Below are positions 37,208-42,356 of a DNA stretch of 64,000 bases, piece after piece. The notes under the pieces were generated by a model that saw only the letters and a program-made list of their open reading frames with translations, had not been told where the DNA came from and ran no database searches. Positions within the stretch are counted from its first letter, which is position 1, and every line of letters starts with the position of its first letter. The DNA comes from an uncultured Bacilli bacterium. GTDB lineage: Bacteria > Bacillota_I > Bacilli_A > RF39 > UBA660. The translations under genes and the position numbers were made by a program. The stretch spans positions 1,876 to 65,875 of the forward strand of contig CALVSY010000006.1 of the NCBI GenBank assembly GCA_944359725.1, in the 5' to 3' direction.

Positions 37208-38564
37208 CTACAATCTGTTTTTTTACGTTTCTTATTTGATCTTTTTCTTTATCACAAATACTTTTTGTAATAGAAATAAAATTTTTGTTTTTCCATTTAT
37301 CCGCTGTTATGATTAAATAATTACTATCATCTAGAATAATAAATGACAAATAAGTTAAATCCTGCTTGACATAAAAGATATTTTCATTGCCATTAACTAT
37401 TTTTTTACCTCCTTTTTGATAAATTCCTTTTTTCATTTTTCCTATTATTTTTTCAGCATCACTTGCAAATTTCTTATCATTTTCGTTTTCTTTTAAAGCA
37501 TCAAAGTAATAACTACTATCCTTCTTTTCATTAATTAGATAATGTATCGTAATATATTTATCCTCATCTAAATAATTTTTCGTATCATTATCTTCATCTT
37601 TTATGGATTTATCAGTCATTTGCTTTTTAAAAATCACGTAATTAGAATACAACTTTTTTAATTCGTTTATTTCATCCGATAACTCACTTTCTGTACACTT
37701 ATCTTTATTATCGTTTATATAAGTACTTATATATGAAATATTTATAATTAAATATTTCATATAATCCGTTTGTGATAGTGAAGGAATCAAACTTTCAAGC
37801 AAATCACTTAACAAAACATCCTTATAAGCAATTGCCATGTTATAATCTTCTTTACTATATTCCTTTGGATACTCGCTTAATAACTTTTGAGCGTTATTTA
37901 AAAGGTTTTTAACTTCAAGTGAACAATTCTTAGATAAAACATTTTTTCTTCTTAAATTTTCTTCTTTTTGCAAGTTCTTAATAATTATTTTATCTTCTTT
38001 TTCTTTCTGAGATTTATTTATTTCATTTATCTTTTTACGATATACCTCCATGTTTTGTTTGCTAACAAAAGAACGTAGTCTTAAAATCTCATCATCTTTC
38101 AAACCTAATCTTATAAACATTCTTTCATGCCTAGAATCAAGATCGACAACATCTTTAGTCAAATTATCAAAAACCGATAATTCCTTATCTAAATCATAAT
38201 AAAAATAAATGGGATTTCTATTTAAATAACTTAATAGTTCTTTTAAACAATTAAGCATTTTATTTTTCTTTTCTACGGTACTATTATTAACGTTAGTAAC
38301 TAGATCAGTCCAAGAAAATTTTTTTAAATCATCCATGGAATTAATGATGTTATTTTTTATACGATCATCATTTACAACGTCATTTATAAGATTTCTTACG
38401 TTAGAATTTTTTATAAAATCATCAAACATAAACGTATCTTTATCTAAATACTCACATATAATGTTTATTAATCTTATTCTTTTATCATTTTGCTTTTTTA
38501 ATGCCTGATTATTTTTAATTAATTTTTGTTTGATTTGCACTAAATAAGTATTCAACAACCTCAC
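37188..38564 (-). CDS. Hypothetical coiled-coil protein with a possible degenerate RelE-like C-terminus
   Basis: Long ORF; C-terminal IFYVKQDLTYLSFIILDDSNYLIITAD beta-rich segment. Confidence 0.7.
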   Translation of the reverse strand: MRLLNTYLVQIKQKLIKNNQALKKQNDKRIRLINIICEYLDKDTFMFDDFIKNSNVRNLINDVVNDDRIKNNIINSMDDLKKFSWTDLVTNVNNSTVEKKNKMLNCLKELLSYLNRNPIYFYYDLDKELSVFDNLTKDVVDLDSRHERMFIRLGLKDDEILRLRSFVSKQNMEVYRKKINEINKSQKEKEDKIIIKNLQKEENLRRKNVLSKNCSLEVKNLLNNAQKLLSEYPKEYSKEDYNMAIAYKDVLLSDLLESLIPSLSQTDYMKYLIINISYISTYINDNKDKCTESELSDEINELKKLYSNYVIFKKQMTDKSIKDEDNDTKNYLDEDKYITIHYLINEKKDSSYYFDALKENENDKKFASDAEKIIGKMKKGIYQKGGKKIVNGNENIFYVKQDLTYLSFIILDDSNYLIITADKWKNKNFISITKSICDKEKDQIRNVKKQIVGGSYDN

Positions 38565-38782
38565 CTTTTCTTTCTTAACTTTTCCATTTTTTCTCTTATT
38601 TCTTTTATTCTTAATTCTTTTTCATCATTATCTAAAGTATAAGTTTTACCATCATAACTTAAAATATCAGTTTCTATTACGTTTGAAGGTAAATCTTTTA
38701 TATTAACCTCTTTTTTACTTCCGTCTTTTATATTTTCAAGTAAAGCTACATCATTTTCTATTTTATCAATCGCGTATTTCAT
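38561..38782 (-). CDS. DUF3006-family protein
   Basis: YAIDKIENDVALLE...LP..V.E.DIL; usual neighbour of ComEC-like MBL genes. Confidence 0.8.
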   Translation of the reverse strand: MKYAIDKIENDVALLENIKDGSKKEVNIKDLPSNVIETDILSYDGKTYTLDNDEKELRIKEIREKMEKLRKKR

Positions 38783-38788
38783 AATTAC

Positions 38789-39718
38789 CTATCCATTCGT
38801 ATCCGTTTTTACCGTTTTAACGCTCAAGTTAATACCATCACTTGTAAATATGATAGTTCCATCCTGATCCGTTCTATAAACCTTAATATTTCTGCTACTT
38901 AATTTTTGTAAAGTAGATTCTGAGGGATGATTATAAGTGTTGTTTAGTCCAACCGATATAACGGCATAATCTGGATCAACCCTATCTAAAAACTCATCAG
39001 TTGAACTATAGTTAGAGCCATGATGCGCAACTTTTAAAACGTCACTTTTTAAATCTTCATCAAGTATTAACTCCTCAACGTTACTAGTTGCATCACCAGT
39101 AAATAAAAAACTATTTTCACCATAAGTCATTTTTAAAACGATTGATGAATCATTTATGTCATTAGTATCATCACCAGAATAAATAACCTTAAAATAAGCA
39201 TCACCAAGACTAAACTCCTGTCCTTTTTCTGGTACGTGATAAGTTAGATTATTACTTTCTAATGCATCTAAAACATCTTCAAAGGTTTTGGTAGTAGAAA
39301 GTTTATCAGGCATGTAATAATTATCAATCTTAAAATTATTAATTATATCATCCATTCCACCAATATGATCTTCATGTGGATGCGTTCCTACTACATAGTC
39401 AAACTCATCAACATTTAAACTTTTAAAATAATTAACAAGCTTTTGCCCATCCTCATTATTACCAGCATCAATAAGCATGTTTTTATCTTTATTTTCAATA
39501 TAAATCGAATCAGCCTGACCAACATCAATAAAGTAAACATTTAAATTGCCATCAACATCTAACTTTTGGGCCTCATCAATTGCCTTTGATACATTTGCAG
39601 AACTTTTATTAAAATCATTTATAAAGTCAGTTTTAAAAATAACCATCAAAATTATTATTAAACAGGCGATAAAACTAACTAATTTTCTTACGTTTTTCTT
39701 AAATCTCATAAATACCAT
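38789..39718 (-). CDS. ComEC/Rec2-like metallo-beta-lactamase-fold hydrolase with N-terminal TM
   Basis: DVGQAD, THPHEDHIGG, LFTGD, KVAHHGS, YRTD. Confidence 0.9.
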   Translation of the reverse strand: MVFMRFKKNVRKLVSFIACLIIILMVIFKTDFINDFNKSSANVSKAIDEAQKLDVDGNLNVYFIDVGQADSIYIENKDKNMLIDAGNNEDGQKLVNYFKSLNVDEFDYVVGTHPHEDHIGGMDDIINNFKIDNYYMPDKLSTTKTFEDVLDALESNNLTYHVPEKGQEFSLGDAYFKVIYSGDDTNDINDSSIVLKMTYGENSFLFTGDATSNVEELILDEDLKSDVLKVAHHGSNYSSTDEFLDRVDPDYAVISVGLNNTYNHPSESTLQKLSSRNIKVYRTDQDGTIIFTSDGINLSVKTVKTDTNG

Positions 39719-39761: not shown

Positions 39762-40094
39762 TTATCTTCTTAATGAATAATTAATACGATCCCCGTTAAC
39801 ATCCTTATCAATTTTAAAATGATCTTTATAATTATCAATATCACAACTATCTTTAAAACTTATGTTACTTTTACTTACGTGATTAAAATCCAAAAGAGCC
39901 TTATGAAGCACTTCATCCATTAAAAACGAACCAAATAATCCATTAAACTCTTTCTTACTAAAATTATATTTTACGTATGATTCATCTTTATCATTAGTAA
40001 TATATATCTTACCTATTTCTTCATTATTTATTAACACTAAATACACGATAAGCTTATCACTACTCATTATTTTTTTAAACTTTATTTCTCTCAT
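39762..40094 (-). CDS. Hypothetical protein
   Basis: ORF with an AAGGGGTG SD. Confidence 0.6.
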   Translation of the reverse strand: MREIKFKKIMSSDKLIVYLVLINNEEIGKIYITNDKDESYVKYNFSKKEFNGLFGSFLMDEVLHKALLDFNHVSKSNISFKDSCDIDNYKDHFKIDKDVNGDRINYSLRR

Positions 40095-40132: not shown

Positions 40133-40339
40133 TTAAGCTTCGTTTGTTTTAACTACTTCTTTTCCTTTATAGTTACCACAGTTTGGGCATACTCTATGTG
40201 GTCTAATTAACTCACCACATTTAGGACATTTTACTGTTTGGTTAGCTTCAATTTTATAGTGAGTACGACGCATTCTTTTTCTTGTCTTACTTACTTTGCT
40301 GAATGGAACTGCAAACAATTGGATATCCAATTTTAACAT
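40133..40339 (-). CDS. rpmF: 50S ribosomal protein L32 with a 9-aa N-terminal extension
   Basis: [33 protein letters not shown]; lies downstream of yceD/ylbN. Confidence 0.95.
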
Positions 40340-40354
40340 ATTCTCACTCCTTCC

Positions 40355-40852
40355 TTACTCTTTAATATAATCTTTTAACTTTGCAAGTCTTGGATCTATC
40401 TCTTCCTTTTTATCCTCATCCGTAATAAGACGCCATCCATCACCTTCTAAAGGTTCTTCTTTAGCATCTGGTGCAAGAACTCTTAAAGGAATATCCACTA
40501 GTATATTTTGCCATACAATTGGAAAAATATCAAGGGTATTTTGATTAATTTCTAACGAATTTTCACTATTTTGACCAATTACATCATTAATTTTAATGTC
40601 AAACGGATATTTTACGTCCTTTAAAGTTCTGGCACAAGGTAAAATCATGGTGCCAGTAATATTTATATCAAGCTCTAATTCTTCTTCATTATTATATACG
40701 TATCCAATTACTTTAACCGGTGATATTCTTCTTATATCAGTTTTAATAAGCATTTCATCAGGAATTATTATTTCTCCTTCTATAGGCACTTTATATGCGT
40801 TATTATATATAATTTTACTTAAATCAATCTTCATATAACCATCACCAACCAA
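40355..40852 (-). CDS. YceD/YlbN (DUF177) family protein
   Basis: LPCARTL and IDPRLAKL motifs; sits before rpmF. Confidence 0.88.
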   Translation of the reverse strand: MVGDGYMKIDLSKIIYNNAYKVPIEGEIIIPDEMLIKTDIRRISPVKVIGYVYNNEEELELDINITGTMILPCARTLKDVKYPFDIKINDVIGQNSENSLEINQNTLDIFPIVWQNILVDIPLRVLAPDAKEEPLEGDGWRLITDEDKKEEIDPRLAKLKDYIKE

Positions 40853-41902: not shown

Positions 41903-41931
41903 AAAAAGATTGAATTAATTTCAATCTTTTT
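41903..41931 (-). terminator. Terminator of pilin A
   Basis: AAAAAGATTGAA / TTCAATCTTTTT arms. Confidence 0.75.
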
Positions 41932-42356
41932 TATGAACCAGTTACTTCACAATCAGTAAAAGTAATTGTTGCATCTTGACCAGAAATACTAATAGAATTT
42001 TTTGTATTTGTAGGAGTAATCATGTTATTAAATTGCCCTTTACCAGTTACTTTGATACTCCAAGAATTTCCACCAGAATCTTCAGTTACCGAAAGCTCAT
42101 AATCTTCATCATCAGCTTCTATGTCACTAGTATCTTTTATTTGTTGTAAAGTAATTCCTCCGGTTTGTGATGATGCGCATAACATTTTTGCATTTCTTTC
42201 AATCATTTGAACAGCATCATAAAATGAATCTCCTCTTGATTTTTTGATAGTGTTGTTGATTTGTGTTGTAGCAATAACCATTATGATTGCTAATACTACG
42301 ATAACCGCTAATAATTCGATTAACGTAAAACCTTTTTTGTTTTTTAATAATTTCAT
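41931..42356 (-). CDS. Type IV pilin A (class III signal peptide), faces the promoter in this orientation
   Basis: KKG|FTLIELLAVIVVLAII; Cys pair in the globular domain. Confidence 0.9.
   Translation of the reverse strand: MKLLKNKKGFTLIELLAVIVVLAIIMVIATTQINNTIKKSRGDSFYDAVQMIERNAKMLCASSQTGGITLQQIKDTSDIEADDEDYELSVTEDSGGNSWSIKVTGKGQFNNMITPTNTKNSISISGQDATITFTDCEVTGS

Follow-up and report, generated by a model that had tools for sequence, protein, structure and literature searches.

The window, i.e. the entire stretch of 64,000 nucleotides that was analysed, carries on its minus strand the gene rpmF, encoding ribosomal protein L32 (bL32). The encoded precursor, pre-L32, begins with nine residues that resemble the tag of L27 (bL27), which in Firmicutes is removed by the protease Prp. 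The coordinates are collected in Table 1.

Table 1. Features at rpmF in the window and at the related loci of the analysis
Feature	Position	Strand	Basis
rpmF CDS, pre-L32, 68 aa and stop	40133..40339	minus	ORF list, TIGR01031, PF01783
Nine codons of the putative propeptide MLKLDIQLF (P9-P1)	40313..40339	minus	outside rpmF profile, L27-tag match, conservation
Predicted Prp cut	after Phe9, between bases 40313 and 40312	minus	
Predicted mature L32, AVPFSK...NEA, 59 aa, CxxC...CxxC zinc ribbon	40136..40312	minus	profile; untagged relatives
Shine-Dalgarno AAGGAAGGAG, 7 nt 5' of the rpmF ATG, overlapping the yceD stop codon	40347..40356	minus	sequence
yceD (DUF177), adjoining rpmF on its 5' side	40355..40852	minus	PF02620
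L27	L001:1189-1470 (contig C8)		
Prp	L001:1483-1794 (contig C8)		
Oddly titled tagged-L32 loci	L078, L080, L095, L100, L103, L114, L127, L129, L144, L149		

The rpmF gene and its N-terminal tag

Both family models recognize pre-L32 well above their cut-offs: TIGR01031 (rpmF_bact) with 90.5 bits (cut-off 22.6) and PF01783 with 89.5 bits (cut-off 21.3). Positions 1-56 of TIGR01031 correspond to residues 10-64 of pre-L32, leaving residues 1-9 outside the family model, and the first profile position falls exactly on Ala10, the canonical mature N-terminus. The first-pass annotation had proposed that the F|A junction coincides with the canonical start of L32, and the profile agrees with it to the residue. 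Its remark that no Met stands right before AVP also holds, as the codon ahead of GCA (Ala10) is TTT, which is not a start codon. The zinc-ribbon residues C38, C41, C51 and C54 are invariant in 64 L32 sequences selected as tagged.

The upstream gene encodes YceD (PF02620, 63.7 bits against a cut-off of 33.2), and yceD-rpmF is the usual gene pair. On the coding strand, the sequence 5' of rpmF reads aaggaaggag-tgagaat-ATG, with the AGGAG core ending 7 nt before the ATG, and the same arrangement is found in the rpmF loci of the genus that were compared. The opening of rpmF from an ATG with a strong Shine-Dalgarno sequence, as first annotated, is thereby confirmed, and the strand, left unstated there, is minus.

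In the tag, the positions corresponding to Prp-type contacts are occupied by F9 (P1), Q7 (P3), I6 (P4), L4 (P6) and A10 (P1'). When the complete genome (1.21 Mb) is scanned in all six frames for the loose motif [LIMV]x[LIMV]Qx[FL][AS], 74 matches emerge, of which two lie directly behind a start codon, namely those of L27 and L32. The same scan revealed no N-terminal tag on any other protein and no tagged phage-like protein. Since L27 and L32 alone carry the motif at the N-terminus, the tag of L32 is more than a chance match. We conclude that the nine-residue tag is a real and conserved feature of L32. Gene callers and profile models count these residues as mature L32, which matters for annotation.

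Several neighbouring genes on the minus strand are also worth recording. A 110-aa ORF (39762-40094), with no Pfam match at E ≤ 0.01, lies directly 3' of rpmF and upstream of two genes on the same strand (38561-39718), in which a DUF3006 protein (73 aa) adjoins a membrane-anchored metallo-beta-lactamase-fold protein (309 aa). Positions 41931-42356 encode a 141-aa protein with a prepilin-type N-terminal methylation motif (PF07963), in a genome of 1.2 Mb; judging from this motif, the protein looks like a type IV pilin or a competence pseudopilin.

Distribution and translation of the tag

L32 is matched in 39 of 40 relatives, the lone exception being 67% complete. The tag is carried by every one of the 22 L32 loci retrieved from further species of the genus, as MLKLDIQLF (18 loci), MLKLDIQTF (2) or MLSLDIQLF (1), with one further locus cut by a contig end after LDIQLF. 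L32 from other families starts as M|AVP or V|AVP in 7 of 7 loci. The L27 proteins of the genus begin with M[LI]KL[QNC]IQLF|AHVKAQG, or with MLKIRLNIQLF in two cases, among the 21 loci caught by a regular expression out of 24 fetched.

The tag also extends over a part of the family. At least 120 of the 401 family genomes, from 65 of the 214 genera, each contain a single match to a DNA pattern that encodes L-[DNEK]-x-Q-x-F-A-[VI]-P; the genome count is a rough lower bound, since variants such as MKMNIQLF escape the pattern. The reversed control pattern gives no match in the 401 genomes, and one of the family matches, in genome G383, is not an L32 start. When residues 1-40 of L32 were used as the query of a cluster search (195 proteins at E ≤ 0.001), an F-ending tag precedes AVP in 106 of the 120 clusters listed, the remainder having FAVVP (1) or M|AVP (13), with the reservation that this query favours tagged forms. 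Within genera the tag is nearly uniform, as 29 of 30 genera listed are all-or-none; the exception includes a genome without any L32 match. The conservation on which the first-pass annotation made its reading depend is found throughout the genus loci fetched and in part of the family.

Outside the family, no real tagged L32 was detected among 351 other genomes of the class; inside the family, the class-wide pattern matched 17 of 49 genomes and the window's own genome. The pattern does occur in 2 of the 351, once in an acetate-kinase-like N-terminus (…SSSLKFQLFAMP…) and once in a 30-codon frame, both of which were rejected as chance matches; the reversed control matched 5 genomes. A longer pattern, applied to one genome per prokaryote species, gave 119 tagged L32 and 1 chance match among the 120 matches listed. 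The tagged-L32 stretches among them have 24-35% G+C, and the listed records are mostly titled 'uncultured Bacilli / Tenericutes / Mollicutes bacterium' and of animal or human gut origin, with Candidatus Fimihabitans intestinipullorum as one named carrier among the listed matches.

Contigs titled as Muribaculaceae, Ignavibacteriales and Paratractidigestivibacter also carry a tagged L32, of the Bacilli type and low in G+C (28-33%). Two of these loci, L129 and L100, encode an identical L32 protein over the part compared. From their sequences, the titles of such contigs look wrong, or the bins mixed.

Because the tag is absent from most genomes of the family, it appears to be dispensable. As possible remnants of lost tags, we fetched 20 family loci in which the L32 match starts at query residues 3-7, some of them with an internal stop. 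Among the 11 loci resolved by a regular expression no remnant was seen: each gene simply opens with M|AVP or V|AVP and has a Shine-Dalgarno sequence directly upstream. On a quick tree of mature L32, the presence of the tag requires 13 changes, whereas shuffling gives 25.1 on average and never fewer than 19; the tree was built on 61 columns from 82 tagged and 28 short proteins (110 rows), a set that the query had biased to tagged proteins. The tag is thus clustered on the tree, and the tree is too weak for a count of gains and losses.

In another reading the nine codons are not translated: initiation would take place at codon 8, the internal TTG, or further downstream, and the frame before it would be open by chance. 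This is highly improbable in our judgement. Codon 8, i.e. P2, is indeed TTG in this genome, and among 133 distinct tagged loci P2 is ATG, GTG or TTG in 54. In the other 79, however, P2 cannot initiate translation, so that the internal TTG cannot be a general start. An ATG precedes P6 in 132 of the 133 loci, by 2-3 codons in 118 and with further ATGs in 14, and in 131 of the 133 an ATG preceded by an SD-like 4-mer lies 2-4 codons (7 in two loci) before P6. The start at the internal TTG, which the first-pass annotation had considered as an objection to its own reading, is consequently set aside. In addition, the Shine-Dalgarno sequence of the present gene stands 7 nt before the first ATG and not before codon 8, untagged members of the family have theirs directly before ATG-GCN, and a start at codon 8 would yield M-F-AVP instead of the canonical M-AVP.

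Codon usage within the tag argues in the same direction, as codons 4-9 vary synonymously while L-[DNE]-[IL]-Q-x-F is kept. Phe at P1 is encoded 117 times by TTT and 16 times by TTC, Leu at P6 by TTA, TTG, CTA or CTT, and Ile at P4 by ATT, ATC or ATA across the 133 loci. Since the pattern used to select these loci already demands Q, F, A, V and P, invariance at these positions is circular, and independent evidence comes solely from the variation among codons and from the start upstream.

Prp and the L27 tag in the same genome

The assembly comprises 1.21 Mb in 30 contigs, with 28.3% G+C and 93% completeness. It contains one L32, one L27 and one match to Prp (MEROPS C108). The genes rplU, prp and rpmA lie in this order and on the same strand of contig C8, a different contig from that of rpmF. 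L27 begins with MLKLQIQLF|AHVKAQGS, and TIGR00062 aligns from residue 9. Both the prp gene and the extended L27 on which the first-pass reading leaned are accordingly present. The tags of L32 and L27 in this genome share 8 of 9 residues, and their coding DNA shares 23 of 30 nucleotides, with differences that are mostly synonymous and with upstream regions that do not resemble each other.

The Prp of this genome is matched by PF04327 with 77.9 bits (cut-off 27) and by S. aureus Prp (4PEO) with an E value of 1.5e-11, the GHA and DIVCA segments being in register; the aligned PDB entry 7JVS has Ser in place of the catalytic Cys. When 25 Prp sequences from relatives are aligned, G20, H21, G28, D30, V32 and C33 are invariant. 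Of these, G20, H21, G28, D30 and C33 correspond to Gly21, His22, Gly29, Asp31 and Cys34 of S. aureus Prp, which form the catalytic dyad and loop and are reported to be essential (PMC9405229), so that the catalytic apparatus is intact. All 13 NCBIfam Prp equivalog models (PRK14553) nevertheless stay below their cut-offs, the best with 63.4 bits against 133, while its place in the operon and its catalytic residues speak for membership. With such scores the Prp of this clade is divergent and may go unnamed in automatic annotation.

The tag pattern of L27 occurs in 290 of 401 family genomes, including genera without a tag on L32. Both tags were fetched from 49 genomes, of which G383 was dropped, and the remaining 48 represent 30 genera that were tested with one genome each. 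At P5, P4 and P2 the two tags agree in 63 of 90 cells, compared with a shuffled mean of 48.4, and none of 20000 shuffles reaches 63, a significance that the shuffle test overstates since the genera are related and not independent. At P4, 24 genera have the pair I/I, 4 have L/L and 2 have L/I; at P2 there are one R/R and one T/T, but also 10 M/L. The loci were selected by a pattern with Q, F, A, V and P fixed. Where residues are identical, the proportion of shared codons within genomes (0.711) does not exceed that between genomes (0.716), which argues against recent gene conversion as the cause of the agreement. Conversion between rpmA and rpmF was rejected on this ground and on the dissimilar upstream regions in this genome. 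The co-variation fits selection on both tags by one enzyme over recent copying, as far as can be judged from the sequences.

These data bear on whether the nine residues might simply stay on L32 as a lineage-specific extension, their likeness to L27 reflecting a shared origin such as an old copy of the 5' end of rpmA. Extensions of this kind do arise in ribosomal proteins, and most of the family is without the tag, so that the function of L32 does not require it. A relic would be expected to drift, yet P1 Phe and P3 Gln are kept across highly diverged L32 proteins; Q7, F9 and A10 are invariant in the 64 sequences chosen for having a tag, and the F|AVP ending of 106 of the 120 clusters listed points the same way. 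Moreover, the tag of L32 follows that of its own L27 at variable positions without codon sharing, and the junction falls exactly on the canonical mature N-terminus. We therefore consider a retained tag unlikely.

The L27 proteins of the family differ in their mature starts, which are AHVKAQG, AHHKGQG or AHKKGQG in most genera. An ASKKG(V/T)G start was seen in six loci of other families and also in some genera of this family, and a tagged L32 was found alongside each type of L27 start. One genome, G489, has two different L27-type N-terminal motif sites, on contigs C3 and C107, which could be a second L27 copy or a mixed bin.

Predicted maturation of L32 by Prp

[quoted passage not shown] We modelled two copies of Prp (25-row alignment) with residues 1-40 of L32 (64-row alignment). 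The score is 0.75, against 0.02 for the best of 3 controls, and the mark applied is one that 116 of 157 solved complexes attain, but only 2 of 215 mismatched pairs. The runs have at least 65% of their contacts in common, with a partner pLDDT of at least 50. In the model, the confident interface comprises L32 residues 1-13, lying in the active-site cleft of Prp. L32 would contact residues 18, 20-23, 26-28, 30, 33-34 and 36-45 of one Prp copy and residues 31-35 and 84-89 of the other, with L4 and I6 touching the second copy as described for P6 and P4 (PMC9405229). Since the complex of S. aureus Prp with Ac-KLNLQFF has already been solved (7KLD), the model may owe its passing score to that known structure; what it shows is likeness, not binding.

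From the sequences and this model, we infer that pre-L32 is probably cut by Prp at F9|A10. In the proposed sequence of events, pre-L32 would be translated from the ATG at 40339, and the genome's own Prp would bind MLKLDIQLF in the manner in which pre-L27 is bound. Cleavage between Phe9 and Ala10 would then release AVPFSK..., the N-terminus that untagged relatives reach by removal of the initiator Met. The tag may thus keep L32 immature until Prp acts, in which case two large-subunit proteins would depend on one protease. That an uncut tag would clash in the ribosome is our assumption; a phrase search of the literature returned no paper on the position of the L32 N-terminus in the ribosome.

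The tag could also be removed by another protease, or its main purpose could be other than maturation, for example if pre-L32 were a competing substrate that tunes the action of Prp on L27. An alternate protease, Rrp, can cut pre-bL27 of S. pneumoniae according to 10.64898/2026.08.10.744006, so that the trimming of such tags is not confined to Prp. The motif of L32, however, fits the Prp contacts described in PMC9405229, and the model places the tag in the Prp cleft. Either variant seems quite improbable to us.

Cleavage by Prp, as we prefer to read the tag, has its closest precedent in pre-L27 of S. aureus, S. pneumoniae and other Firmicutes. There, too, a tag of about nine residues has Leu at P6, a hydrophobic residue at P4, Gln at P3, Phe at P1 and Ala at P1', and prp lies within rplU-prp-rpmA. 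The present carrier differs, since bL32 is a zinc-ribbon protein and it is L27 that extends to the peptidyl transferase centre; the tag of L32 was found in only part of one family, and its cleavage is predicted from sequence and model. The long form of L27, by comparison, is stated to be present throughout the Firmicutes (10.1101/2025.08.01.668195). The position of bL32 is next to uL22, bL17 and bL20, and uL22 and bL32 join pre-50S particles of E. coli together, before uL2 (PMC11723945 and PMC4881015).

Tags of this type are also known on proteins other than L27. The capsid and scaffold proteins gp47 and gp46 of phage 80alpha are unrelated proteins that share an N-terminal ...LNLQ[FH]F|A and use the Prp of the host (PMC9405229); these are phage structural proteins whose cleavage is experimental, whereas L32 is a core ribosomal protein of the cell. 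FlhB (MKLRVDLQFF... in B. subtilis), a non-L27 cellular protein with an L27-like N-terminus, has been put forward as a further Prp substrate from sequence alone, in a proposal that cites a thesis; FlhB is a flagellar export protein and not a ribosomal one (PMC9405229). Whether Prp acts on other substrates is called unclear in 10.1101/2025.08.01.668195.

The first-pass annotation had not seen L32 described as a Prp substrate, and our searches agree with it. L32 as a Prp substrate was not found in the accessible text of PMC9405229, which names L32 once, as an exit-tunnel protein, nor in that of 10.1101/2025.08.01.668195 and 10.64898/2026.08.10.744006. It was likewise not found in full-text literature searches, with subscription papers and supplements outside their scope. 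Extra Prp substrates have already been proposed in print, but in the accessible text of PMC9405229 this concerns FlhB only, and not L32. On the sequence evidence, Prp probably matures L32 as a second ribosomal protein besides L27, in this uncultured gut bacterium of low G+C and in many of its relatives. The tag of L32 is a variant of the L27-Prp system and not a different kind of system.

Prp has been studied as a narrow-spectrum antibiotic target. We lean slightly towards a broader interpretation, in which Prp would be a multi-substrate protease of ribosome maturation that acts on bL27, at the peptidyl transferase centre, and on bL32, beside uL22, with the tag of L32 repeatedly gained or lost in one family and kept in step with that of L27 by selection through the shared protease. 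If this is true, a second natural ribosomal substrate would provide an independent test of the purpose of the propeptide, whether it acts as a checkpoint in assembly, guards against premature function or serves some other end. Close relatives that differ only in the presence or absence of the L32 tag would constitute a natural experiment, and the co-varying pairs of substrates would map the specificity of Prp.
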